A stretch of 64,000 bases of DNA from positions 253,208,001 to 253,272,000 of the forward strand of contig OZ024741.1 of the NCBI GenBank assembly GCA_964016885.1. Direction: 5' to 3'. Below the pieces are notes generated by a model, which saw only the letters and a list, made by a program, of their open reading frames with translations, was not told where the DNA came from and did not search any database. The translations under genes were made by a program, and so were the position numbers. Within the stretch, counting starts at the first letter, position 1; each line of letters opens with the position of its first letter. This document shows, in pieces, positions 1,351 through 39,272 of the stretch. This DNA comes from Eledone cirrhosa (lineage: Eukaryota).

Positions 1351-3624
1351 GAAACAGAGTACAAGAGTAGTATGGCATCAGATTGTTTAATAACTTGTGA
1401 GTGGAAGTCACAAGCATGGTTACTTAGGCTTGAGAGGTATGGAAAAAGACCTTTAAAATCTACAGAAGTGCAGATGTCTTCCACAGATGTTGCCTTAGGA
1501 CCATACTTAGGATTTTTTGATGTCACCACATATAGCTGTGTAGTCTACAGAATACCATCACTATATGATGATAGAAGATACTTGACCATGTGCTATGCAT
1601 GTACATGAAGAGACCAGAAAGGACCTCCTGTGAATGGAAGACAGGAGGCTGGTGTAGGAAACAAGACAGACACTTGTCAAGACTAGGTTGAGGTCTGTGG
1701 AGGAAGATCTGGCAGACGTGGGCCCCAGTCTGGGAGCAGGCTCATGACAAGGCTTCTGACGACTCCAATAAGTGTATCAGATATTTATCATATCACTCAT
1801 TTTACATGTAATTACTGATAAACACAAGTGCTCCATAGGGAGTAAAAGGAACTAAAGAAAGAAAGAAAGAAACAAGCAAAGGAGGATGGGGGAGATTGTG
1901 GGGAGGTGGATGAGAGGATGGGGCGGTAGGGGGAGAGGAGGAGACAGAGGAAGGGGATGGAGGGAGGTAGGAGGGAGGACTAAGAGGATGAGAAGAAGAT
2001 GAAGAAAAAGAGGAGGAGACAAAAGCTATGCTGTCCGCCACCCATGCATATCTGTGTGTATGTCCTCTTTTGTCAATGTTTTTCGGCAAAAAGACTGAAA
2101 TCCCAGTGATTTCAGGAACAAAATCCTGAGTTACCAATAATTCATTGCCACTCTCACCATCAGAGAACCAGTGACTGACCTATTGAAAACCTGTAACTAA
2201 GCTTCTATTGTTTACCTCTGGCCATATAAAATACTCAAATGAATCAAAACAAATAAATATATGTCCAGTAGCTGATGACCAAACTGACCAGATCACTATT
2301 TCATTTAATATGTTGATCCATTGTTGTTTAGTACTAGGTCAGGTCTGATCCAGGAGGCCAATGATCAAAGACATTCCTGCCATGATCATTACATCTTTTT
2401 AGGTATATCTCCGATAATGTCATCTATTGTGTCTTTTTCTTTATTTAAGATACATGGGATTTGTGATAAATTTAGTTGCTATTTCTAGCAGGTTAAACAA
2501 CCAAGTAGAAGCTCCTTGTGATTGAATATATTTTTAGTATCTAATGAATAGATCTCTACTGTACAACCCTCCTTTAAGTGGTTGTTCTCACAATCTTAAC
2601 ATTGATATCGTCATCTTCATACTGTATATTGTATTTATGCCAAATATGTGTAGAGGAATTCATCTTTTTCCATACAGAAATGGAGATTTTTGTAATATCT
2701 AAAACTAAACCTGACAGCATCAGTAGAATGAAAGCAAGATTTAACAAGATAAGGAATAGAATGTTACTATTTAGTCCTGATTTTACGCATTTATATCATC
2801 CTTCGCTACCTCCACCTGCAACAGATTGAGCACTAACATAACTTAGCTACAGTTCATATAAATTTAGACCTCACCATTTATAGAGATTGTCTCTTCAGGC
2901 GCTCGGTAACCTACCCTTATTTCTTTTACTCTAAAACATGTTTTACTCTATACATGTTTTACTCTATACATGTTTTAGAAAGACATTTTTGTGAACATTT
3001 TCTGAGACCAAAGAGCTTCAGGATTTTGCTTTTGATGATACACATTATAGGAACTAGTTTAATAGCTTCGAATAGATCTACAATTTTTATATGGTCGAAC
3101 TTACAAACTTATAGATTTAAACCTAAATCTTGTATCTCTCCTCGTTAAGATAGTGTAATCTTATTTCCTAGATCTTGGCCAAAAGTAGCATAGATTCAAA
3201 AATCTAAAACATGTTTCTCCTTTTAAGCATAGCCTAGGATATTATTACATAGATTTTATGCATTGCATCTGAGAAAATACATAAAACACAGTTAAAATAA
3301 GATTCATGTGCATTGCTGTGGTCAGCACATGAGTCTAGTAAACAAAACAAAATAATCTATTAACTACAAATAAGGCAAAATGGAACAACCCCAATAAGTG
3401 TATCAGATGTTTATCATATCACTTGTTTTACATGTAATTAGTGACAAACACAAAAATACATTTAACTTGTACAGCCATGTCAGGCAAAACTAAAGATAAC
3501 TATCTAATAAATTTACAGTCAAAGTGAAAGCAGTCCTTGTCAAAGAATTGAAACCTACTGTCGAAACCCTAGAAGACTAACATGTCAAGAATTTTTTCAA
3601 TAACTGAACAACAACTTGAAGGTG

Positions 3625-8199: not shown

Positions 8200-11100
8200 G
8201 TGAAGCGCCAACCCGGAGACCCATCCCTACGAGTGTCGACAAATGCCCAAAACTCCGAGTTGGTACCATCAATGTAGGCTCAATGAAAGGAAGAGCAGGA
8301 GAAATCGTAGAAATGCTAGAGCAAAAAGAAATTGATGTATGCTGTGTGCAAGAGACTAGATGGAGAGGAGAGTCTGCCAGAGTCCTGGTAGGAAAAAGTC
8401 GGTGCTACAAATTTTTCTGGGTGGGAAATGACGATGGGATGAGTGGTGTAGGTATACTACTAGCTGACAAGTGGGTAGATAAAGTAATCTCAGTGTACAG
8501 GGTAAATGCAAGAATCATTAAACTCAGACTAGTCCTGAATAAAACAATTACCACAATAATATCAGCTTACGCACCCCAATCGGGGCTGCCAGACGAACTT
8601 AAGGATAGGTTTTACGAGTCCCTAATGCACACTACTGCTCTAACAGACGACAATGACTTCCTAATCATCGCAGGAGATTTTAACGGACAAGTAGGTAAAC
8701 ACTGCGACGGCTTCAATAGAGTACATGGAGCCCATGGGGTTGGCACAAGAAATGAAGAAGGATTAAGACTTCTAGAATTCTGCGACGCCAATGACATGTC
8801 GATATGTAACACAAACGTTAAAAAACCCGACAACCACCTGATCACCTATAGATCAGGGGAGCACTCCAGTCAGATAGATTTTATCCTCACCAGAGGACGT
8901 GATAGATGGACGGTCGTAAACACAAAAGCCTTCCCTAGTGAGGAATGTACATCCCAACATAGCTTAGTTGTCAGCGACCTCACGGTCAGAACTAGTCGAA
9001 CCTGGAAACAGAGACCAACCTGGAGAAGAAAGATCTGGAAGCTGAAAGTCCCCTCAACCAGTAACAGATTTAAAGATATTTTACTCAACGCCTACGACAG
9101 TAAAGAAGAACAGATAGAGACATTTAATGTAGAAGAGAACTGGGAGTTCCTAAAAACTAATTTACTAGAGGCGACGGATGAGGTCTGTGGCTGGAGTAAG
9201 ACCTCAAGCAGGAGGAGAGTGACTTGGTGGTGGAACAATAAGGTAGATGAAGCAGTCAAGGCCAAGAGACAGGCATGGAAAGAATGGAAGAACGGGGGGA
9301 GCAGGGTACATTACGTAGAGACCAAGAGGGAAGCTAGGCGACAAGTATACTTAGCTAGGAGGGAAGCAGAGGATAGAAAATTCAAGCATGTTTTGCAACG
9401 TGAGGACCAGAAACAGGAGGTATTCAAGATTGCGAGGCAGTGTGTCAGAGATAGTTGTGATGTCATTGGAGAGAAGTGTATCCGGAATGATAAAGGTGAG
9501 CTTGCCCTCACAAGTGCTGAGAAGAAAGATGCATGGAAGAGTCATTATGATAGATTACTAAATGAGGAGAATGCATGGGAAGAAGAAACCCTACCCCAAG
9601 TAGACCCTATAGAGGGGCCAGCAGTACAAGTCAGCAGCAGTGTAGTAAGTAAGGCAATCAAAGATATGAAGATGGGGAAGGCAACCGGTCCATCGGGTAT
9701 AGCTGCCGAGATGCTGAAGGCATCTGGGCCTGTAGGTCACACTATAACCACACGTATCGTTAACCAGGTAATACTAGAAGGTGTCATACCAAAAGATTGG
9801 TGCAGTAGCATCATTGTCAACTGCTACAAAGGTAAAGGCGATGCACTAGATAGAGGAAACTATAGAGGTATAAAGTTGATGGACCAGGTCATGAAAGTAA
9901 CAGAAAGAGTTATAGCACAGTTGATTAGGGACCAGGTGAAAATAGACGAGATGCAATTTGGGTTTGTACCAGGAAGAGGCACCACTGATGCCCTCTTCCT
10001 TGTGAGGCAATTACAGGAAAAGTACCTAGCTAAAAGTAAGCCACTCTACTTGGCATTTGTTGACCTTGAGAAAGCCTTTGACAGAGTTCCACGTGCTGTA
10101 ATCTGGTGGGCTCTTAGAAAACTAGGAGTAGATGAATGGCTTGTGAAAGCGGTACAAGCCATGTATAGGGGAGCAGTCAGCAAAGTTAGGATTAGCAATG
10201 AGTATAGCGATGAATTTAGCGTACAGGTTGGGGTCCACCAGGGCTCAGTTCTTAGCCCCCTCCTGTTCATCATAGTCCTGCAGGCAATAACGGAGGAGTT
10301 TAAGACCGGATGCCCATGGGAACTCCTGTATGCTGATGACCTCGCACTTATAGCTGAATCTATGGTAGAACTAGAGATTAAATTCCAAACTTGGAAGCAG
10401 GGACTAGAAAGAAAGGGTCTCAAAGTCAACATGACAAAGACTAAGGTCCTTGTAAGTAGACGAGAAAACAGAACCCAGATCCCCTCAGGGAAATGGCCTT
10501 GCTCAGTATGTAGGAAAGGTGTAGGTAGGAACTCCATTCTCTGCCCCAAATGCAAACAATGGGTACACAAGAGATGTAGCGGGATCTCAGGAAGCTTAAT
10601 TAAGAATGTAGGCTTCACTTGCAGCAGCTGTGCTGAGACAGCAAGCAGCGAACAGCCACAGGAAACAAGTACCACCAATCTCTGGGAGGGCTCTGTAGAC
10701 AGCTTCTGTTACCTAGGTGACCGAATTAGCAGCGGAGGTGGGTGTTCGGAAAGTACAATAACTAGGGTAAGAATAGGATGGAAGAAGTTTAGGGAACTAC
10801 TACCACTGCTAGCTGCAAAAGGCTTCTCCCTCAGAATGAAAGGCAGACTGTATGATGCGTGTATCCGAACAGCAATGTTGCATGGTAGTGAGACCTGGAC
10901 GCTGAAGGTGGAAGACTTACGTAGATTAGAGAGAAATGAAGCCTGCATGCTCCGATGGATGTGTAACAGTAACATACGTGAACAACAAAGCATAAATGAA
11001 TTGAGAGAGAGACTGAGCATAAGAGGAATCAAATGCTGTGTGCAGGAGAGGCGGATGCGCTGGTATGGACATGTAATGTGTATGAAGGATGACAGCTGCA

Positions 11101-11577
11101 TAAAAAGGTGCAGAGCACTAGATGTTGATGGAAACCGCGGAGTGGGGAGACCCAAGATGACCTGGGATGAGGTGATAAAAGCCGACCTTACCCAATTACA
11201 CCTCTCAAAGGCAATGACACATGACCATGACTTCTGGCGTCACACAGTAATACAGAGTACCCGACCTCCCATGGGTACAAGCTGAAGCATATAGAAAATA
11301 TGCCCCCACACCCCCACAGCAAGGTGGTCGTGGAGGTGCCACGGCAAAAAAGCACCCAGCCCACACTGTAAAGTGGACGTGTAGGTGCCACGAAAAAGCA
11401 CCCAGCACTCACTGTAAATGAGGTTGGTGTTAGGAAGGGCATCCAGCTGTAGAAATCAAGCCAGATCAGTTCCTGTATGAGCAAGACAAGGTCAGCCGAC
11501 CAGACACTGCCCACAACAGGACAACCCGTCTAACCCATGCTAGCGTGGAAGAACGGACGTAAAACGGTGATGATGAT
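8200..11577 (+). mobile_element. RTE-clade LINE, 5'-truncated copy A
   Basis: Collinear with copy B from ORF codon ~10 onward; 3'UTR; (TGA)n tail. Confidence 0.95.
8283..11285 (+). CDS. RTE ORF: APE endonuclease + reverse transcriptase + PHD-type zinc finger; native start lost
   Basis: CVQETRW, GDFNG, IDFIL, SQH; FVDLEKAFD, QGSVLSP, YADD; C4HC3 cluster. Confidence 0.93.
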   Translation: MKGRAGEIVEMLEQKEIDVCCVQETRWRGESARVLVGKSRCYKFFWVGNDDGMSGVGILLADKWVDKVISVYRVNARIIKLRLVLNKTITTIISAYAPQSGLPDELKDRFYESLMHTTALTDDNDFLIIAGDFNGQVGKHCDGFNRVHGAHGVGTRNEEGLRLLEFCDANDMSICNTNVKKPDNHLITYRSGEHSSQIDFILTRGRDRWTVVNTKAFPSEECTSQHSLVVSDLTVRTSRTWKQRPTWRRKIWKLKVPSTSNRFKDILLNAYDSKEEQIETFNVEENWEFLKTNLLEATDEVCGWSKTSSRRRVTWWWNNKVDEAVKAKRQAWKEWKNGGSRVHYVETKREARRQVYLARREAEDRKFKHVLQREDQKQEVFKIARQCVRDSCDVIGEKCIRNDKGELALTSAEKKDAWKSHYDRLLNEENAWEEETLPQVDPIEGPAVQVSSSVVSKAIKDMKMGKATGPSGIAAEMLKASGPVGHTITTRIVNQVILEGVIPKDWCSSIIVNCYKGKGDALDRGNYRGIKLMDQVMKVTERVIAQLIRDQVKIDEMQFGFVPGRGTTDALFLVRQLQEKYLAKSKPLYLAFVDLEKAFDRVPRAVIWWALRKLGVDEWLVKAVQAMYRGAVSKVRISNEYSDEFSVQVGVHQGSVLSPLLFIIVLQAITEEFKTGCPWELLYADDLALIAESMVELEIKFQTWKQGLERKGLKVNMTKTKVLVSRRENRTQIPSGKWPCSVCRKGVGRNSILCPKCKQWVHKRCSGISGSLIKNVGFTCSSCAETASSEQPQETSTTNLWEGSVDSFCYLGDRISSGGGCSESTITRVRIGWKKFRELLPLLAAKGFSLRMKGRLYDACIRTAMLHGSETWTLKVEDLRRLERNEACMLRWMCNSNIREQQSINELRERLSIRGIKCCVQERRMRWYGHVMCMKDDSCIKRCRALDVDGNRGVGRPKMTWDEVIKADLTQLHLSKAMTHDHDFWRHTVIQSTRPPMGTS

Positions 11578-11931
11578 ATATATATACATATAAACATATT
11601 ATGTTTACCTTTTACAGACACATCATCATCATCATCATCATCATCATCACCGTTTTACGTCCGTTCTTCCACGCTAGCATGGATTAGACGGGTTGTCCTG
11701 TTGTGGGCAGTGTCTGGTCGGCTGACCATGCCTTGCTCATACAGGAACTGATCTGGCTTGATTTCTACAGCTGGATGCCCTTCCTAACACCAACCTCATT
11801 TACAGTGAGTGCTGGGTGCTTTTTCGTGGCGCCTACACGTCCACTTTACAGTGTGGACTGGGTGCTTTTTTGCCGTGGCACCTCCACGGCCACCTTGCGG
11901 CGGAGGGGGGGGGGCATATTGTTTATCTGCT

Positions 11932-14900
11932 TCAGCATGTACCCATGGGAGGTCGGGTACCCTGTATTACTGCGTGACGCCAGAAGTCACGGTCGTGTGT
12001 CATTGACTTTGAGAGGTGTAGTTGGGTAAGGTCGGCTTTTATCACCTCATCCCAAGTCATCTTGGGTCTCCCCACTCCGCGGTTTCCATCAACTTCTAGT
12101 GCTCTGCACCTTTTTATGCAGCTGTCATCCTTCATACGCATCACATGTCCATACCAGCGTAACCGCCTCTCCTGCACGCAGCATTTGATTCCTCTTATGC
12201 TCAGTCTCTCTCTCAATTCCTTTATGCTTTGTCGTTCACGTATATTACTGTTACACATCCATCGGAGCATGCAGGCTTCGTTTCTCTCTAATCTACGTAA
12301 GTCTTCCACCTTCAGCGCCCAGGTCTCACTACCATGCAACATCGCTGTTCGGATACACGCATCATACAGTCTGCCTTTCATTCTGAGGGAGAAGCCTTTT
12401 GCAGCTAGCAGTGGTAGTAGTTCCCTAAACTTCTTCCATCCCGTTCTTACCCTAGTTATTGTACTTTCTGAGCACCCACCTCCGTTGCTAATTCGGTCAC
12501 CTAGGTAGCAGAAGCTGTCTACTGTTTCTACAGGGCCCTCCCAGAGATTGGTGGTACTTGTTTCCTGTGGCTGTTTGCTTGCTGTTTCAGCACAGCTGCT
12601 GCATGTGAATCCTACATTCTTAATTAAGCTTCCTGAGATCCCGCTACATCTCTTGTGTACCCATTGTTTGCATTTGGGGCAGAGAATGGAGTTTCTACCT
12701 ACACCTTTCCTACATACTGAGCAAGGCCATTTCCCTGAGGGGATCTGGGTTCTGTTTTCTCGTCTACTTACAAGGACCTTAGTCTTTGTCATGTTGACTT
12801 TGAGGCCCTTTCTCTCTAGTCCCTGCTTCCAGGTTTGGAATTTATTCTCTAGTTCTACCATAGATTCAGCTATGAGTGCGAGGTCATCAGCATACAGGAG
12901 TTCCCATGGGCATCCGGTCTTAAACTCCTCCGTTATTGCCTGCAGGACTATGATGAACAGGAGAGGGCTAAGAACAGAGCCCTGGTGGACCCCAACCTGT
13001 ACGCTAAATTCCTCGCTATACTCATTGCCAATCCTAACTTTGCTGACTGCTCCCCTATACATGGCTTGTACCGCTTTCACAAGCCATTCATCTACTCCTA
13101 GTTTTCTAAGAGCCCACCAGATTACTGCACGTGGAACTCTGTCAAAGGCTTTCTCAAGGTCGACAAATGCCAAGTAGAGTGGCTTACTTTTAGCTAGGTA
13201 CTTTTCCTGTAATTGCCTCACAAGGAAGAGGGCATCAGTGGTGCCTTTCCCTGGTACAAACCCAAATTGCATCTCGTCTATATTCACCCGGTCCCTAATC
13301 AGCTGTGCTATAACTCTTTCTGTTACTTTCATGACCTGGTCCATCAACTTTATACCTCTATAGTTTCCTCTATCTAGTGCATCGCCTTTACCTTTGTAGC
13401 AGTTGACAATGATGCTACTGCACCAATCTTTTGGTATGGCCCCCTCTAGTATTACCTGGTTAACGATACGTGTGGTTATAGTGTGACCTACAGACCCAGA
13501 TGCCTTCAGCATCTCGGCAGCTATACCCGATGGACCGGTTGCCTTCCCTATCTTCATATCTCTGATTGCCTTACTTACTACGCTGCCGCTGACTTGTACT
13601 GCTGGTCCCTCTATAGGGTCTACGTGGAGTAGGGTCTCTTCTTCCCATGCATTCTCCTCATTTAGTAATCTATCATAATGACTCTTCCATGCATCTTTCT
13701 TCTCAGCACTTGTGAGGGCAAGCTCACCTTTATCATTCCGGATACACTTCTCTCCAATGACATCACAACTATCTCTGACACACTGCCTCGCAATCTTGAA
13801 TACCTCCTGTTTCTGGTCCTCACGTTGTAAAACATGCTTGAATTTTCTATCCTCTGCTTCCCTCCTAGCTAAGTATACTTGTCGCCTAGCTTCCCTCTTG
13901 GTCTCTATGTAATGTACCCTGCTCCCCCCGTTCTTCCATTCTTTCCATGCCTGTCTCTTGGCCTTGACTGCTTCATCTACCTTATTGTTCCACCACCAAG
14001 TCACTCTCCTCCTGCTTGAGGTCTTACTCCAGCCACAAACCTCATCCGTCACCTCTAGTAAGTTATTTTTTAGGAACTCCCAGTTCTCTTCTACGTTAAA
14101 TGTCTCTATCTGTTCTTCTTTACTGTCGTAGGCGTTGAGTAAAATATCTTTAAATCTGTTACTGGTTGAGGGGACTTTCAGCTTCCAGATCTTTCTTCTC
14201 CAGGTTGGCCTCTGTTTCAGGGCTCGTCTAGTTCTGACCGTGAGGTCGCTGACAACTAAGCTATGTTGGGATGTACATTCCTCACTAGGGAAGGCTTTTG
14301 TGTTTACGACCGTCCATCTGTCACGTCCTCTGATGAGGATAAAATCTAACTGACTAGAGTGCTCCCCTGATCTATAGGTGATCAGGTGGTTGTCGGGTTT
14401 TTTAAAGTTTGTGTTACATATCGACATGTCATTGGCGTCGCAGAATTCTAGAAGTCTGAATCCTTCCTCATTCCTTGTGCCAACTCCATGGCCTCCATGT
14501 ACTCTATTGAAGCCGTCGCAGTGTTTACCTACGTGTCCGTTAAAATCTCCTGCAATGATTAGGAAGTCCTTGTCGTCTGTTAGAGCAGTAGTGTGTATTA
14601 GGGACTCGTAAAACCTATCCTTAAGTTCGTCTGGCAGCCCCGATTGGGGTGCGTAAGCTGATATTATTGTGGTAATTGTCTTATTCAGGACTAGTCTAAG
14701 TTTAATCATTCTTGCATTTACCCTGTACACTGAGATTACTTTATCTACCCACTTGTCAGCTAATAGTATACCTACACCACCCATCCCATCGTCATTTCCC
14801 ACCCAGAAAAATTTGTAGCACTGGCTTTTTCCTACAAGGACTCTAGCAGACCCTCCCCTCCATCTAGTCTCTTGCACACAGCATACATCAACTTCCTTTC

Positions 14901-15051
14901 GCTCTAGCATTTCTACGATTTCTCCTGCTCTTCCTTTCATTGAGCCTACATTGATGGTACCAACTCGGAGTTTTGGGCATTTGTCGACACTCGTAGGGGA
15001 GGGTCTCTGGGTTGGCGCTTCACGTGGGTGCTTGGTAGCTCGCAGATTCAT
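11932..15051 (-). CDS. Intact RTE ORF, 1039 aa: APE + RT + PHD finger
   Basis: GTINVGS, QETRW, GDFNGH, LDFIL, SQH, YADD; no stops or frameshifts. Confidence 0.96.
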   Translation of the reverse strand: MNLRATKHPREAPTQRPSPTSVDKCPKLRVGTINVGSMKGRAGEIVEMLERKEVDVCCVQETRWRGGSARVLVGKSQCYKFFWVGNDDGMGGVGILLADKWVDKVISVYRVNARMIKLRLVLNKTITTIISAYAPQSGLPDELKDRFYESLIHTTALTDDKDFLIIAGDFNGHVGKHCDGFNRVHGGHGVGTRNEEGFRLLEFCDANDMSICNTNFKKPDNHLITYRSGEHSSQLDFILIRGRDRWTVVNTKAFPSEECTSQHSLVVSDLTVRTRRALKQRPTWRRKIWKLKVPSTSNRFKDILLNAYDSKEEQIETFNVEENWEFLKNNLLEVTDEVCGWSKTSSRRRVTWWWNNKVDEAVKAKRQAWKEWKNGGSRVHYIETKREARRQVYLARREAEDRKFKHVLQREDQKQEVFKIARQCVRDSCDVIGEKCIRNDKGELALTSAEKKDAWKSHYDRLLNEENAWEEETLLHVDPIEGPAVQVSGSVVSKAIRDMKIGKATGPSGIAAEMLKASGSVGHTITTRIVNQVILEGAIPKDWCSSIIVNCYKGKGDALDRGNYRGIKLMDQVMKVTERVIAQLIRDRVNIDEMQFGFVPGKGTTDALFLVRQLQEKYLAKSKPLYLAFVDLEKAFDRVPRAVIWWALRKLGVDEWLVKAVQAMYRGAVSKVRIGNEYSEEFSVQVGVHQGSVLSPLLFIIVLQAITEEFKTGCPWELLYADDLALIAESMVELENKFQTWKQGLERKGLKVNMTKTKVLVSRRENRTQIPSGKWPCSVCRKGVGRNSILCPKCKQWVHKRCSGISGSLIKNVGFTCSSCAETASKQPQETSTTNLWEGPVETVDSFCYLGDRISNGGGCSESTITRVRTGWKKFRELLPLLAAKGFSLRMKGRLYDACIRTAMLHGSETWALKVEDLRRLERNEACMLRWMCNSNIRERQSIKELRERLSIRGIKCCVQERRLRWYGHVMRMKDDSCIKRCRALEVDGNRGVGRPKMTWDEVIKADLTQLHLSKSMTHDRDFWRHAVIQGTRPPMGTC

Positions 15052-15296
15052 ATTTCATCTATTGATTCAGAGTTGCTCGTGTATTCCCAGCTCATCCATC
15101 CATAACGGTGGGAAAATTGAGGGCTAGAAGAACAGTGGTGGTGGGGTAATGGCAGGGTGTGTTGGGATGCGCCAGAGGCGGAGAGAGTTAGTTAGGCAGG
15201 TAGTAGCAGCAGCAGTGGAAATGGCATGCTAGGTTTGATTGGTCGAATAGACTATGGTGGTGTGTGGTGGTGGTGGGGGGGGGGGGAAATTGTGAG

Positions 15297-17270
15297 GTAG
15301 GAACTGAGGGTCGCATGGTAAATATCCAAGTTAATACTACATCAGTAAAATTAACAATAATAACGTCATGAAAAAAACTACTAAGAGAAACCCTAGAAAA
15401 TTTATCGCTAATACAGCAGGGAAAATTTAACGCTAATACAGCAGGGAACATCATAATATTAACGACAATATGTAGGCTAAAATACCTTCGTAGATTAGAT
15501 GGATGGCTGGAATAATTGGAGTCAGCTCTAGTGATACATTTTAGCAGAGAAGAATGGGAAAGTATCTATCTCTTCAATATTTTCAGATTGAATGAATTAG
15601 GTTAAAGACAGGGTAGTAAGCCTTAAAGAAGTGCATAGAGAGGGGGGGGTAGGAACTGAGGGTCGCATGGTAAATAACAGAGAGATACAATAGGATTAGA
15701 ATACCGCATGGTAAATATCCAAGTTAATAAGTTAATACTACATCAGTAAAATTAACAATAATAACGTCATGAAAAAAACTACTAAGAGAAACCCTAGAAA
15801 ATTTATCGCTAATACAGCAGGGAAAATTTAACGCTAATACAGCAGGGAACATCATAATATTAACGACAATATGTAGGCTAAAATACCTTCGTAGATTAGA
15901 TGGATGGCTGGAATAATTGGAGTCAGCTCTAGTGATACATTTTAGCAGAGAAGAATGGGAAAGTATCTTATCTCTTCAATATTTTCAGATTGAATGAATT
16001 AGGTTAAAGACAGGGTAGTAAGCCTTAAAGAAGTGCATAGAGAGGGGGGGTAGGAACTGAGGGTCGCATGGTAAATAACTGAGAGAGATACAATAGGATT
16101 AGAATACCGCATGGTAAATATCCAAGTTAATAAGTTAATACTACATCAGTAAAATTAACAATAATAACGTCATGAAAAAAACTACTAAGAGAAACCCTAG
16201 AAAATTTATCGCTAATACAGCAGGGAAAATTTAACGCTAATACAGCAGGGAACATCATAATATTAACGACAATATGTAGGCTAAAATACCTTCGTAGATT
16301 AGATGGATGGCTGGAATAATTGGAGTCAGCTCTAGTGATACATTTTAGCAGAGAAGAATGGGAAAGTATCTTATCTCTTCAATATTTTCAGATTGAATGA
16401 ATTAGGTTAAAGACAGGGTAGTAAGCCTTAAAGAAGTGCATAGAGAGGGGGGGGGTAGGAACTGAGGGTCGCATGGTAAATAACTGAGAGAGATACAATA
16501 GGATTAGAATACCGCATGGTAAATATCCAAGTTAATAAGTTAATACTACATCAGTAAAATTAACAATAATAACGTCATGAAAAAAACTACTAAGAGAAAC
16601 CCTAGAAAATTTATCGCTAATACAGCAGGGAAAATTTAACGCTAATACAGCAGGGAACATCATAATATTAACGACAATATGTAGGCTAAAATACCTTCGT
16701 AGATTAGATGGATGGCTGGAATAATTGGAGTCAGCTCTAGTGATACATTTTAGCAGAGAAGAATGGGAAAGTATCTTATCTCTTCAATATTTTCAGATTG
16801 AATGAATTAGGTTAAAGACAGGGTAGTAAGCCTTAAAGAAGTGCATAGAGAGGGGGGGGGGTAGGAACCGAGGGTCGCATGGTAAATAACTGAGAGAGAT
16901 ACAATAGGATTAGAATACCGCATGGTAAATATCCAAGTTAATAAGTTAATACTACATCAGTAAAATTAACAATAATAACGTCATGAAAAAAACTACTAAG
17001 AGAAACCCTAGAAAATTTATCGCTAATACAGCAGGGAAAATTTAACGCTAATACAGCAGGGAACATCATAATATTAACGACAATATGTAGGCTAAAATAC
17101 CTTCGTAGATTAGATGGATGGCTGGAATAATTGGAGTCAGCTCTAGTGATACATTTTAGCAGAGAAGAATGGGAAAGTATCTTATCTCTTCAATATTTTC
17201 AGATTGAATGAATTAGGTTAAAGACAGGGTAGTAAGCCTTAAAGAAGTGCATAGAGAGGGGGGTAGGAAC
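15297..17270 (-). repeat. Five tandem monomers (352, 401, 405, 406, 402 bp) forming the LINE 5' end; putative promoter array
   Basis: GTAGGAAC at 15297, 15649, 16050, 16455, 16861 and 17263; units near identical. Confidence 0.92.
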
Positions 17271-17573
17271 ACATATATATATATATACATATAAACATAT
17301 TATGTTTACCTTTTACACACACATATATATATATAAATATATATATACATATAAACATATTATGTTTACCTTTTACACACACATATATATATATACATAT
17401 AAACATATTATGTTTACCTTTTACACACACATATATATATATACATATAAACATATTATGTTTACCTTTTACACACACATATATATATATATATATATAC
17501 ACATATAAACATGTTTACCTTTTACACACACACATATATATATATACATATAAACATATTATATTTACCTTTT

Positions 17574-17619
<46 letters not shown>

Positions 17620-17786
17620 ACATATGTTTACCTTTTACACACACATATATATATATGCATATAAACATATTGTTTACCTTTTACACACACATATATATAT
17701 ATATATATATACATATAAACATATTATGTTTACCTTTTACACACACACATATATATATACATATAAACATATTATGTTTACCTTTT

Positions 17787-17826
<40 letters not shown>

Positions 17827-18838
17827 ACATATGTTTACCTTTTACACACACACATATATATATATACATATAAACATATTATGTTTACCTTTTACACACA
17901 CATATATATATATATATACATATAAACATATTATGTTTACCTTTTACACACACATATATATATATACATATAAACATATGTTTACCTTTTACACACACAT
18001 ATATATATACATATAAACATATTATGTTTACCTTTTACACACACATATATATATATATACATATAAACATATTATATTTACCCTTTACACACACACATAT
18101 ATATATATATACATATAAACATATTACGTATGCATGTATGTATGTAAAGAGACAAGTCTGGCCAGAATTAGCCATGCCATACCTTGCTCCAAGAGGACTG
18201 TATATTTGGCTGGGGTTTTACAGCTATGGCTGCAAGCATGGCTGAGTGGTTCAGAAGTTTGCTTTGCAATTAAAAAGTCCCAGATTTGGTCCCTCTGAGT
18301 GGCATCTTAGGCAAGTATTTTTTACTACAGCCCCAGGTTGACCCAAGCATTGAGAGGGAAATTAGATTGGCAGAAACTGTCTGGAAGACCATTAAATGGA
18401 TTGTACCGGTAATTCAATGGTGTAACCTTGTTGCACAGGTATTAATTACAACTTTATATGTGTTCAACTTTACCTTTCATCCTTCCGGGGTAGATAAAAT
18501 AAAGTACCAGTTATGTACTGGTGTGATATAATCAACTTTCGTCTTCGCCAAAATTACTGCCCTTGTGCTAATGTTAGAAAGAATTATTTTATTTGTCTTT
18601 CTTAACAGAATTCTATATATTTTAATATTTCTAAAGCTCATAGTTCCACTTTTCTTTTCTTACTTGTTCCATTCTTCTCTTTGTTTCAATGTTGCTATGT
18701 GTTCTTTCATTATTTTACTGATTCTAGTCATTAGACTGCAGCCATGTGTGTTTGTATCAATAATTCTTACCACTCATCTACAAAAATCTCATTCTGCTCC
18801 ATATATTATAAATGTTCTGTTTCCATTACAGTTTCATT

Positions 18839-19859: not shown

Positions 19860-22047
19860 ATCATCATCATCATCATCGTTTAACGTCCATATTCCACACT
19901 TGCATGGGTTTGGACGGGAGTTTTCCCACTTGAGGCAAGAGTGGTTGTCTTGCTCGCATAGGACTGTCTGGCGGGTTTTCTACAGCTGGATGCCCTTCCT
20001 AACACCAACCACATTTACAGTGTGGAACTGGGAGGTTTTTACCGTGTTGCCTACACGGCCACATTACAGCGTGGACTGTGTGTTTTTTTTTGTCGTGACA
20101 CCTACACAATCTCATTTGTTTCGGGCTGGATGTTGTGGTACCAACATAACTTTACATTGAAAGGGGTGGTGTGGATGGGGTGGGATGGGGTGTATTTTGT
20201 TAGAGGTGCCTACTGACTGTAGTAGGTTTCACTTTGTACTTAGGTAAGGCGGGTCTTCTCTATTACTGTGTAGCGCCAAAGGTCTCAGTCCAGTGACATT
20301 GTCTTGGAGAGGTGTAAGTGTGTGAGGTTGGAATTTATCAAGTCGTCCCAGGTTTTTCTGGGTCTGCCTACTCCGTGGCTACCGTCTATTTTTATTGCCC
20401 TGCACTTTTTTATACAGCTGTCGTCTTTCATGCGCATCACGTAACCATACCAACGTAGTCTTCTCTCGAGTAAACAACATCTGATCCCTCTTATTTCTAA
20501 TTTTTCCCTTAGTTCGTTTATGCTTTGCCGTTCACGTATATTACTATTACACATCCAGCGGAGCATGCAAGCTTCGTTCCTCTCCAGTCTGCGTATATCC
20601 TCGGCACACAATGCCCAGGTCTCGTTGTTCATATGCAGGCATCATACAGCCTGCCTTTCATTTTTAGGGAGAACCCTTTAGCGGCTAATAGTGGTATAAG
20701 CTCGCTGAACTTTTTCCATCCAGTTCTGACTCTAACTACTGTACTTTCAGAGCACCCTCCCCCATTGCTGATTTTGTCACCCAGGTAACGGAAGCTGTCC
20801 ACTATTTCTATAGAACGATTTGTGCAATGGAATGAGCTAGTATTCTGTGGGCACTTGCTGCTATTTATTGCACCAGATCACCAGCCACATCTAAAATCTA
20901 TGTTCTTAGTTAGCTTACCTGTGATCCCACTACATCTTTTATGCACCCATACTTTGCATTTGGGACATAAAATGGAGTTTCTACTTACTCCTTTCCCACA
21001 CACTGAGCATGGCCATTTCCCAGATGGGACAGGCACCCTATTTTCCTTCCTACAAACTAGAACTTTAGTCTTAGACAGGTTAATTTTAAGGCCTTTTGAT
21101 TCTAGGCCATGCTTCCATGTTTGGAATTTCTTCTCTAGTTTGGCCTTTGATTCAGTTATGAATGTTAGATCATCTGCGTATAGGAGTTCCCATGGGCAGC
21201 CGGTCTTGAACTCCACTGTTATAGCCTGAAGGGCAATAATAAATAGTAGGGGGCTAAGAATGGAGCCCTGATGAACACCAACTTTTACGCTAAACTCTTC
21301 ACTATATTCGTTGTTAATTCTAACCTTGCTGACTGTTTCTTTATACATGGCTTGTATAGCTCTCACAAGCCATTCATCAACACCTAGTTTTCTAAGAGCC
21401 CCCCAGATAATGGAATGGGGGACTCTGTCGAAGGCTTTCTCCAAGTCAACAAAAGCTAAGTATAGGGGTTTACTTTTAGCTAGGTACTTCTCCTGTAGTT
21501 GTCGTACAATGAAAAGAGCATCTGTGGTACTTTTACCTGACACAAACCCGAACTGCATTTCATCTAGATCAATTCTCTCTCTGATTAGTTGCGCTATTAC
21601 TTTTTCTGTGACCTTCATGACCTGGTCGATTAATTTAACGCCTCTATAGTTACTTCTATCTAGGGCATCTCCTTTACCCTTGTAGCAGTTAATGATGATG
21701 CTGCTACGCCAGTCCTTCGGAACAACCCCATTCTGTATGACTTGGTTTACTATCCGGGTGACCATGGTGTGTCCCACCGTTCCAGAAGCTTTCAGCATTT
21801 CAGCAACTATTTCCGAAGGCCCAGCCGCCTTACCCGTCTTCATATCTTTGATTGCCTTACTTATTATACTACCTTCGACTAACACTGCTGGTCCCTCTAT
21901 TGAGTCGATGTGGGGGAGACTGTCTTTCTCCCATTTATTCTCCTCATTTAGTAGCCTTTCGTAGTGACACTTCCAAGCTACCTTCTTATCAGCGTCAGTG
22001 ATGGCAAGTACACCATTATCATTAAGGACACACTTCTCCCCGACAAT
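19860..22047 (-). mobile_element. RTE LINE second subfamily, 5'-truncated and frameshifted
   Basis: ORF pieces 20878-22047 (YADD, PHD) and 20285-20632; distinct 3'UTR; (CAT)n tail. Confidence 0.92.
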
Positions 22048-22101
22048 ATATATATAAAGCGGACGTAAAATGATGATGATGATGATGATATATATATATA
22101 T

Positions 22102-22450
22102 GATAAATGTAATCTGAGTTTTTCGAATATTAATAACATTCGATTCGTTTGCAATTTTGCAAACAAGCCTCAATTTCATAGCCATGTCAGTAGAATGAGC
22201 CCCTCATTCCTGCTCTTGTGTTGGCATGCGAACAGAACTGCAGACACTAATGTTTCTGGGTATCACTCTTCATCAATACAGTTCACTGTTCACCTGCCAA
22301 ACTGTCAGAGTTAGTGAAGTGTAAGAATGAAGTGTTCTCCTGACATGGCTATAAAATTGAGGCTTGTTTGCAAAATTGCAAACGAATCGAATGTTATTAT
22401 TAATATTCAAAAAACTCAGATTACATTTATTGCCTTCAGCCATGTAGAGC
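22102..22450. mobile_element. Fold-back element, ~88-bp inverted arms around a hammerhead motif; partial second copy 23914-24140
   Basis: ATAAATGTAATCTGAG...GCCATGTCAG versus CTGACATGGC...CTCAGATTACATTTAT. Confidence 0.8.
22235..22284 (-). ncRNA. Type-I hammerhead motif with a core C-to-U change
   Basis: gaactgta TTGATGA agagtgataccca GAAA cattagtg TC tgcagttc. Confidence 0.6.
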
Positions 22451-36632: not shown

Positions 36633-39272
36633 ATCACAGTAACCCACAGTAACTACAATAACACATAATAACCCATAACAGCCTACATTAACCCACCATA
36701 ACCCACAGCAACCCACAGTAACCCACAGCAACCTTCAGTAACCCACAGCTACACACAGTAGACCACAGTAACGAACAGTAACCCGCAGTTACCCACAGTA
36801 ACCCACAGCAACCCACAGTAATCCATAGTAACACACAGTAACCCACATTAACCCACAGCAAGACACAGTAACCCACAGTAACCCACAGCAACACACAGTA
36901 GCCCACTGTAGACCACAGTAACCCACAGTAACCCACAGTAACCCACAGTAACCCACAGTAACCTCCAGCATCCCACAGTAACCTACAGTAATCCACAGCA
37001 ATCTACAGTAACCCACAGCAACACACAGTAACCCACAGCAGCCCACAGCAACCCACAATAACCCACAGTAACCCACAGTAACCCACAGCAGCCCACAGCA
37101 ACCCACAATAACCCACAGTAACCCACAGCAGCCCACAGTAACCCACAGCAGCCCACAGTAACCCATAGTAACCCACAGCAGCCCACAGTAACCCACAGTA
37201 ACCCATAGTGATCCACAGTAACCCATAGTAACCCATAGTAACCCACATCAAAACACAGTAACCCACAGCAGCCCACAGTAACCCTCAGCAACCCACAGTA
37301 ACCCACAGTAACCCACAGCAACCCACAGTAACCCACAGAAACACACAGTAACCCACAGCAACACACAGTAACCCACAGCAGCTCACAGTAACCATCAGCA
37401 ACCCACAGTAACCATCAACAACCCACAGTAACCGACAGTAACCCACAGTAACCACCAGCAGCCCACAGCAGCCCACAGTAATCCACAGTAACACACAGTA
37501 ACCCACAGCAACCCACAGTAACCCACAGTAGCCGACAGTAGCCCACAGTAACCCACAGTATCCCGCAGCAACCCACAGCAACCCACAATAACCCACAGTA
37601 ACCATAAGCAACCCACAATAACCCACAGTTGCCCACATAACCCACAGCAGCCCACAGTAACAATCAGCAACCCACAGTAACCATCAACAACCCATAGTAA
37701 CTCCCAGTAACCCAAAGTAACCCACAGTAACCCAGGGCAATCCACAGTAACCCACAGTAACCCACAGTAACCCACAGAAAAACACAGTAACCCACAGTAA
37801 CCCACAGCAACACACAGTAACCCAAATCAGCCCACAGTAACCATCAGCAACCCACAGTAACCATCAACAACCCACAGTAACCCACAGTAGCCCACAGTAA
37901 CCCACAGCAGCCCACAGTAACCCTCAGTAACCCACAGTAACTATCAACAACCCACAGTAACCATCAACAACCCACAGTAACCCACAGTAACCCACAATAA
38001 CCCACAGTAACCCACAGTAACCCACAGCAGCCCACAGTAACCCACAGTAACCCACAGTAACCCACAGTAACCCACAGCAGCCCACAGTAACCCACAGCAA
38101 CCCACAGTAACCCACAGTAACCCATAGTGATCCACAGTAACCCATAGTAACCCATAGTAACCCACAGTAACACATAGTAACCCATAGTAACCCACATCAA
38201 CCCACAATAACCCACAGCAACACACATTAACCCACAGCAGCCCACAGTAACCATCAGCAATCCACAGTAACCCACAGCAACCCACAGTAACCCACAGCAA
38301 CACACAGTAACCCACAGCAACACACAGTAGCCCATAGCAGCCCACAGTAACCATCAGCAAACCCACAGTAACCATCAACAACCCACAGTAACCCACAGCA
38401 ATCCACAGCAACACGCAGTAACCCACAGCAACACGCAGTAACCCACAGCAACCCACAGTAACCATCAACAACCCACACTAACCCACAGCAATCCACAGTA
38501 ACCCACAGCAATCCACAGTAACCCACAGCAGCCCACAGTAACCCACAGTAACCCATAGCAATCCACAGTAACCCACAGTAACCCACAGTAACCCACAGCA
38601 GCCCACAGTAACCCACAGCAGCCCACAGTAACCCACAGCAGCCCACAGTAACCCACAGCAACTATCAACAACCCACAGCAGCTCACAGTAACCCACAGTA
38701 ACCCACAATAACCCACAGTAACCCACAGTAACCCACAGCAGCCCACAGTAACCCACAGCAACTATCAACAACCCACAGCAGCCCACAGTAACCCACAGTA
38801 ACCCACAATAACCCACAGTAACCCACAGTAACCCACAGCAGCCCACAGTAACCCACAGCAGCCCACAGTAACCCACAGCAGCCCACAGCAACCCATAGTA
38901 ACCCACAGCAGCCCACAGTAACCCACAGCAGCCCACAGTAACCCACAGCAACTATCAACAACCCACAGCAGCTCATAGTAACCCACAGCAGCCCACAGTA
39001 ACCCACAATAACCCACAGTAACCCACAGTAACCCACAGCAGTCCACAGTAACCCACAGTAACCCACAGCAGCCCACAGTAACCCACAGCCACCCACAACA
39101 ACCCACAGCAGCCCACAGTAACCCACAGCAGCCCACAGCAGCCCACAGTAACCCACAGCAACCCACAGTAACCCACAGCAGCCCACAGCAGCCCACAGTA
39201 ACCCACAGCAGCCCACAGTAACCCACAGCAGCCCACAGTAACCCACAGTAACCCATAGCAACCCACAACAGT
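36633..39272. repeat. 2.6-kb 10-bp satellite (ACCCACAGTA / GCCCACAGCA variants)
   Basis: Continuous decamer periodicity, ~260 units. Confidence 0.97.

Follow-up and report, generated by a model that had tools for sequence, protein, structure and literature searches.

A young RTE-type LINE family in Eledone cirrhosa with tandem 5' monomers as candidate repeated promoters

The A module of the Dictyostelium element TRE5-A is tandemly repeated, and the internal promoter of insect LINEs is a single copy at the element's 5' end. In the portions of the literature that were available, TRE5-A is described as a non-LTR element with a modular 5' UTR whose A module has promoter activity (PMC5911963), and insect LINEs as users of internal DPE promoters (PMC4748587), with jockey, Doc, G, I, F, SART1 and TRAS1 combining TCA(+1) with RGWYV at +28 (PMC4748587, PMC1538597). 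The available parts of the rodent literature report that mouse L1Md (A, Tf, Gf) and rat L1 elements carry a variable number of tandem 5' monomers, including a distinct proximal monomer, ahead of a ~250-bp tether, that younger copies have more monomers, and that the arrays are renewed by duplication through a mechanism that is undecided (PMC6454616, PMC5381506, PMC9022269); two models of array regrowth, unequal exchange and expansion during cDNA synthesis, have been put forward for the mouse (PMC6454616). By contrast, RTE LINEs such as HmRTE-e01, BmRTE and the octopus RTE-2_OV, as far as the available part of PMC2887409 describes them, have one ORF with an AP endonuclease and a reverse transcriptase (RT), no RNase H match, a simple-repeat 3' tail and mass 5' truncation, and the 5' UTRs described in the available text (PMC2887409, PMC9115989 section 6) are unique sequences of 276 to ~600 nt with no monomer array. 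The literature that was searched yielded no RTE element with 5' tandem monomers, the available portions of PMC3747384 and PMC13282606 holding nothing on the subject, although Repbase, Dfam, subscription journals or supplements may describe one.

The element analysed here lies on the minus strand of the window, that is, the whole 64,000-nucleotide stretch of Eledone cirrhosa DNA under study (Table 1). Its 5' array was resolved by TRF into 4.8 copies of a 405-406-bp period with 99% matches, and the five units, each of which begins with GTTCCTACC, are 96.9-99.8% identical to the second one. The preliminary description had placed these near-identical units directly upstream of the RT ORF; the units are confirmed, whereas a tether of 252 nt separates them from the ATG. 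It was right that array and element together interrupt a minisatellite, as the identical 48-bp repeat is found on both sides, and that the monomer junctions share a motif, which reads CCTCA|GTT at four junctions and has G instead at 16869. A run of C residues of variable length follows the junction. The unique UTR also starts with the junction motif, as had been stated, opening at 15304 with the same nine bases as the monomers (GTTCCTACC); the most plausible reading is that this shared stretch marks where the repeat ends on its 3' side. The proximal unit of the studied copy lacks ~50 bp of the monomer tail, and such a short-tail monomer is the proximal unit in 77 of 92 scorable family copies. 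A second copy, 96% identical and cut ~30 bases into the ORF, occupies positions 8200-11577 (+) of the window; the tails of the two copies face each other across one unit of the same 48-bp minisatellite. Elsewhere in the window are an older related LINE fragment (20250-22200, -), which is 75% identical, and a 2.6-kb strand-skewed tandem repeat of 10, 20 and 50 bp (36635-39267).

Table 1. Features of the studied element and its flanks (window positions)
Feature	Position	Strand	Remarks
Outermost monomer, 402 bp	16869..17270	-	Opens at 17270, the element 5' end
Monomer, 406 bp	16463..16868	-	Opens at 16868; reference for monomer positions
Monomer, 405 bp	16058..16462	-	Opens at 16462
Monomer, 401 bp	15657..16057	-	Opens at 16057
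Proximal monomer, short-tail type, 352 bp	15305..15656	-	Opens at 15656
Candidate Inr+DPE	17178..17211	-	A+1 at 17209, DPE match at +28..+32; putative function
Candidate Inr+DPE	16772..16805	-	A+1 at 16803; putative function
Candidate Inr+DPE	16367..16400	-	A+1 at 16398; putative function
Candidate Inr+DPE	15964..15997	-	A+1 at 15995; putative function
Corresponding block, proximal monomer	15563..15595	-	1-bp deletion shortens Inr-DPE spacing in the studied copy
Unique 5' UTR (tether), ~252 nt	15052..15304	-	
Single intact ORF, 1039 aa: AP endonuclease, RT (YADD), PHD finger	11932..15051	-	ATG at 15051
3' UTR, ~300 nt, ends in (GAT)n tail	11622..11931	-	
48-bp AT-rich minisatellite, 5' side of insertion	17271..18126	.	
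Same minisatellite, a single unit, 3' flank of insertion	11578..11621	.	

The coding region is that of an RTE-type element. The single 1039-aa ORF matches PF03372/PF14529 and PF00078 and has no Pfam match to RNase H, and no ORF of at least 150 aa that could represent a separate ORF1 was found in the array or the tether. The element ends in a (GAT)n tail and is frequently truncated at the 5' end, exact 24-mers taken at element positions 3188, 1864 and 227, thus from 3' to 5', having 10125, 2332 and 761 matches. This layout fits the RTE description in the available part of PMC2887409, an assignment that is set by layout and is compatible with RTEX or other single-ORF clades; protein searches for relatives returned no named clade. 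The L1 clade is characterized by two ORFs, a poly(A) tail and a CpG-rich 5' UTR, and the studied element, with one ORF, a (GAT)n tail and a monomer of 35% GC, is therefore not an L1. Nor does it match RTE-2_OV (1109 aa, C2H2 finger), in view of its PHD finger and ~300-nt 3' UTR. The PHD finger follows the RT domain (aa 778-821, ~12590-12725, -), and the ESM Atlas contains unnamed clusters with the identical set of RT, endonuclease and PHD domains. In this RTE-type LINE the monomer-plus-tether design resembles that of rodent L1, with which the family shares the variable arrays, the distinct proximal unit, the greater monomer number of younger copies and renewal by duplication, with the presumed promoter residing in a monomer that, unlike those of L1, is not CpG-rich. 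It differs from insect LINEs in that the motif pair, a candidate promoter, is repeated in every monomer, and from TRE5-A in that the latter has two ORFs, targets tRNA genes and inhabits an unrelated host.

Collection of further copies, which the preliminary description had proposed for counting monomers, established that the array is a family-wide feature with a variable number of units. A 27-base pattern spanning the junction of the last monomer and the tether had 615 exact matches genome-wide and a control had none. Ninety-six of the first 100 junction matches listed were sampled (L081-L176), two others being already covered and two being second matches within one locus. For counts of length and position two segmental duplicates were dropped (n=94), and seven copies were censored, six because the array ran beyond the 4.8 kb examined and one at a gap, leaving 87 mapped 5' ends. 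The array measured at least 350 bp, and so held at least one monomer, in 78 of the 94 copies, at least 750 bp in 54 and at least 2 kb in 23, and 70 of the 96 copies kept an ORF of at least 1030 aa. Among the 20 best-scoring arrays 17 were joined directly to a tether, one via a 5' inversion and two had no body; arrays of 12 and of at least 15 units are present in the genome. In an additional set, 40 of 46 listed copies with a tether but without the exact junction, reading by hand identified 22 in which a variant junction is preceded by sequence related to the monomer, 16 whose truncation falls within the tether and two that could not be resolved. In a sister subfamily (30 loci) with a UTR that is 84-90% alike, the 5' module is partly homologous and is duplicated at 370-640 bp in ~9 loci.

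Individual copies display further rearrangements. L042:1-3335 is a 5'-inverted copy whose array points outward from the body, an arrangement like that left by twin priming. L040 and L045 each consist of 4-5 monomers whose 5' junctions are ordinary, orphan promoter-like arrays with no body within ~20 kb. Several sister-subfamily copies (L196, L202 and L213) have in common an unrelated, partly duplicated segment of 100-200 bp in the 5' module, 100-400 bases upstream of the tether, which may be a captured SINE-like repeat, and in L251 the first ~40 bases of the tether are tandemly repeated about four times. With respect to insertion sites, (TA)n occurs within 30 bases of an end in 56 of 86 scorable copies from the L081-L176 flanks, which suggests that TA microsatellites are strongly targeted or that copies are retained there. 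In the unique flanks of this sample any target-site duplications appear to be short or missing; among 30 copies outside (TA)n a match of at least 6 bp was seen in nine, compared with 62 of 870 mismatched control pairs.

The distribution of array lengths resembles that of truncations within the ORF. The 24-mer counts give a loss rate of 1.1/kb in the 3' half of the ORF and 0.68/kb in its 5' half, and arrays also end at 0.68/kb, a comparison in which the exact 24-mers may mark different subfamilies. Kaplan-Meier survival of the array tracks the ORF-derived curve to ~4 kb (0.25 vs 0.26 at 2 kb; 0.068 vs 0.038 at 4.8 kb). As the array decays at the rate of the 5' half of the ORF, no full-length class is seen, and most array ends would be ordinary truncations of much longer templates.

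Array architecture is remodelled more quickly than the ORF mutates. Builds vary greatly from copy to copy, one monomer containing a 98-bp sub-repeat up to ~19 times, and copies with no substitutions in the 3.1-kb ORF differ in array build; in four such copies, for example, the proximal unit has 5, 3, 3 and 1 sub-repeats. Monomer heads diverge by 0.24% within copies and 2.1% between them, differences between copies amount to 2.4% in the monomer, 1.0% in the UTR and 0.3% in the ORF, and private variants are common to the units in 10 of 25 multi-monomer arrays. Slow growth after insertion found no support, as length does not rise with age and in fact falls slightly (rho -0.22, p 0.04, n 89). Private changes per kb in single monomers and in the ORF were 0.26 and 0.26 in young copies, 1.0 and 1.2 in the middle group and 1.0 and 2.4 in the oldest, where the shortfall of single-monomer changes leaves room for some later homogenisation. 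The lack of growth with age and the matching rates of change in young and middle copies together suggest that the arrays for the most part already existed when the copies inserted, and that they were probably rebuilt fast before or during that event.

The preliminary description held that each monomer drives transcription from the TCAGTT junction of the following unit, which would set the element 5' end at GTTCCTACC. The studied copy starts there; five copies with this start were found genome-wide, in addition to L039; L218 starts at tether base 2. These five, the real elements among eight genome-wide matches with foreign flank directly before the motif, slightly exceed the 2-3 roughly expected, and L039 was missed by the pattern. 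The 5'-end counts, however, largely refute the model, which is very unlikely to be correct. Only one of the 87 uncensored ends falls at monomer position 1, and the interval from -6 to +8 of the junction contains one end where 2.1 were expected. In a genome-wide scan (TATATA, a gap of up to 24, then the anchor; distinct loci counted by hand) the junction gave 10 loci, the fewest of five intervals, the others having 12 (positions 19-43), at least 29 (55-79), 16 (139-163) and 29 (367-391; chi-square p 0.01 with rough weights). The only match combining a flank with the tether start proved not to be an element. In older subfamilies the motif is mostly lacking, with GTG or CTG at the junction, as judged from 40 loci chosen for failing the exact pattern and 30 sister loci not so chosen. 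That TCAGTT resembles an initiator is correct insofar as it fits TCAKTY, but the match is at chance level, TCAKTY being present in 49% of 3000 dinucleotide shuffles and at three sites in the monomer (A at positions 66, 384 and 406), and an RGWYV check of the monomer detected no DPE at +28 of the junction. The variable C-run after the junction also argues against the model. The ends are largely scattered, the very randomness that the preliminary description had named as telling against its proposal, and the start of the studied copy at TCAGTT is best read as coincidence.

Among the TCAKTY sites, only TCA(+1)TTC, with its A at position 66 and thus 65 bases into the monomer, has RGWYV at +28. Such a pair arose in 0.7% of 3000 shuffles, and in 0.03% when G at +24, the preferred base in Inr-DPE promoters, was present as well. 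The Inr consensus and the 27-bp Inr-DPE spacing applied here derive from the available part of PMC1538597. The site is found at this offset in 211 of 217 young monomers. Of 14 sister matches, ten have TCACTC, a mismatch to TCAKTY, and one TCAGTC at equal spacing, while three are cut short or carry a deletion at this point, one of these three beginning at the Inr A itself. The Inr-DPE block is free of gaps in 21 aligned monomers drawn from young, intermediate and sister subfamilies, and gaps occur to either side of it, although the conserved region extends to ~position 160 and conservation is therefore wider than the Inr and DPE. Of seven matches in public sequencing runs, all of them contigs, a single one comes from RNA: a 174-nt gut-metatranscriptome contig that matches the monomer and is uninformative on starts or expression.

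The 5' ends also show a modest excess downstream of this site. In the sample 11 ends lie at positions 63-83, an interval picked after the data had been seen, against 3.1 in simulation, and none lie at 96-145 against 8. In copies without (TA)n flanks eight ends were observed at 63-79 where 1.2 were expected, whereas the excess is absent from (TA)n-flanked sampled copies (2 vs 1.4). Copies outside the sample gave 22 of 52 ends against ~12 expected (p 0.002, from hand counts and rough weights), a p value that becomes 0.03 without ends that are ambiguous at the anchor edge. Narrower scans found nine loci at 48-64, 18 at 83-99 and four at 99-115, and the chance of a stop per monomer in the candidate interval was 6.8% vs 2.5% expected. 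The excess at 63-99 is broad and 2-3.5-fold, with no single-base peak: exact starts at position 66 number five loci genome-wide, no more than at position 1 (five), so a sharp start was not found. The control at position 156 had one locus, a count that covers one lineage variant only and is not like for like. Raw ends number 29 loci at positions 367-391, the same as the minimum at 55-79. A step in the end counts at position 65 was discounted, since control windows revealed that the pattern favours ends near the anchor; chance matching with (TA)n flanks as the cause of the 63-83 excess failed in simulation, microhomology-guided joining lying outside the model. The pair at position 66 is a better promoter candidate than TCAGTT, made plausible by the internal DPE promoters of insect LINEs but not proven.

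On balance, and with restrained confidence, we favour the view that the element represents a young RTE-type LINE family in which monomers of ~350-1100 bp precede a tether and each monomer likely contains an internal Pol II core promoter at position 66, not at TCAGTT. The monomers would then likely act as repeated promoters. Most source RNAs would start many monomers upstream, drop-off of the reverse transcriptase would set the array length of the new copy, and a copy retaining roughly one monomer would not be left promoterless; lost units would likely be restored as repeats duplicate rapidly, before insertion or in its course, with unequal exchange or slippage at source loci as the most likely route. 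The initial proposal that monomers preserve promoters through retrotransposition is retained with respect to the family-wide array, the variable unit number, the monomer-plus-tether layout and the quick renewal, and abandoned with respect to the start at TCAGTT. It is possible, though unlikely, that the RT itself rebuilds the array at each insertion, the cDNA re-annealing to an internal monomer, at the RNA 5' end or upon slipping, and copying until drop-off. Such rebuilding, an instance of the expansion during cDNA synthesis modelled for mouse L1 in the available part of PMC6454616, would explain the missing full-length class and the single drop-off rate through ORF and array, as well as the homogeneous copy-specific arrays, the differing arrays on identical ORFs and the absence of growth with age. 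Unequal exchange in long-array source loci, however, predicts identical patterns, such long arrays (12 and at least 15 units) exist, and the RT step itself has nowhere been observed. In an equally tentative form of this idea the element has no fixed 5' end, and telomerase-like iterative copying would give each insertion that reaches the UTR its own homogeneous stack of Inr+DPE modules, with length set by drop-off. The data agree with either mechanism, unequal exchange at source loci or an expansion while cDNA is being made, and we lean towards the former.

The lack of a sharp start peak, the smooth decay through the array and the low GC would also agree with monomers that are not promoters, being instead a slippage-prone passenger or a truncation buffer, with source transcription driven by host or far-upstream promoters. 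We regard this as quite unlikely, given the homologous 5' module and fixed Inr-DPE spacing in subfamilies whose UTRs are 84-90% alike, and the 5'-end excess at 63-99; moreover, read-through sources should bring in host sequence, whereas all 96 of 96 copies end in monomer or exceed the examined span. A separate satellite or assembly artefact lying beside the LINE, in place of an array of its own, is extremely improbable and already refuted as a general explanation. The two bodiless arrays among the 20 best-scoring, with no matching body within ~20 kb downstream, and C-run lengths that vary as read errors would, are in its favour. The remaining 18 of those arrays reach the tether directly or through an inversion, the 615 junctions recur genome-wide, array types are grouped on the ORF phylogeny (18 changes vs 39 when shuffled), and monomer pieces and the joint of the 96-98-bp sub-repeat occur in contigs of other public runs, all of which contradict such an account.

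If the favoured reading is true, the rodent-L1 answer to the loss of 5' promoters arose independently in a single-ORF RTE-type LINE, with modules that are of the DPE type and not CpG/YY1. The several hundred very young, mostly intact copies, together with differing arrays on identical ORFs, make both models of regrowth directly testable in this family. In repeat libraries such arrays would be mistaken for satellites, or collapsed.
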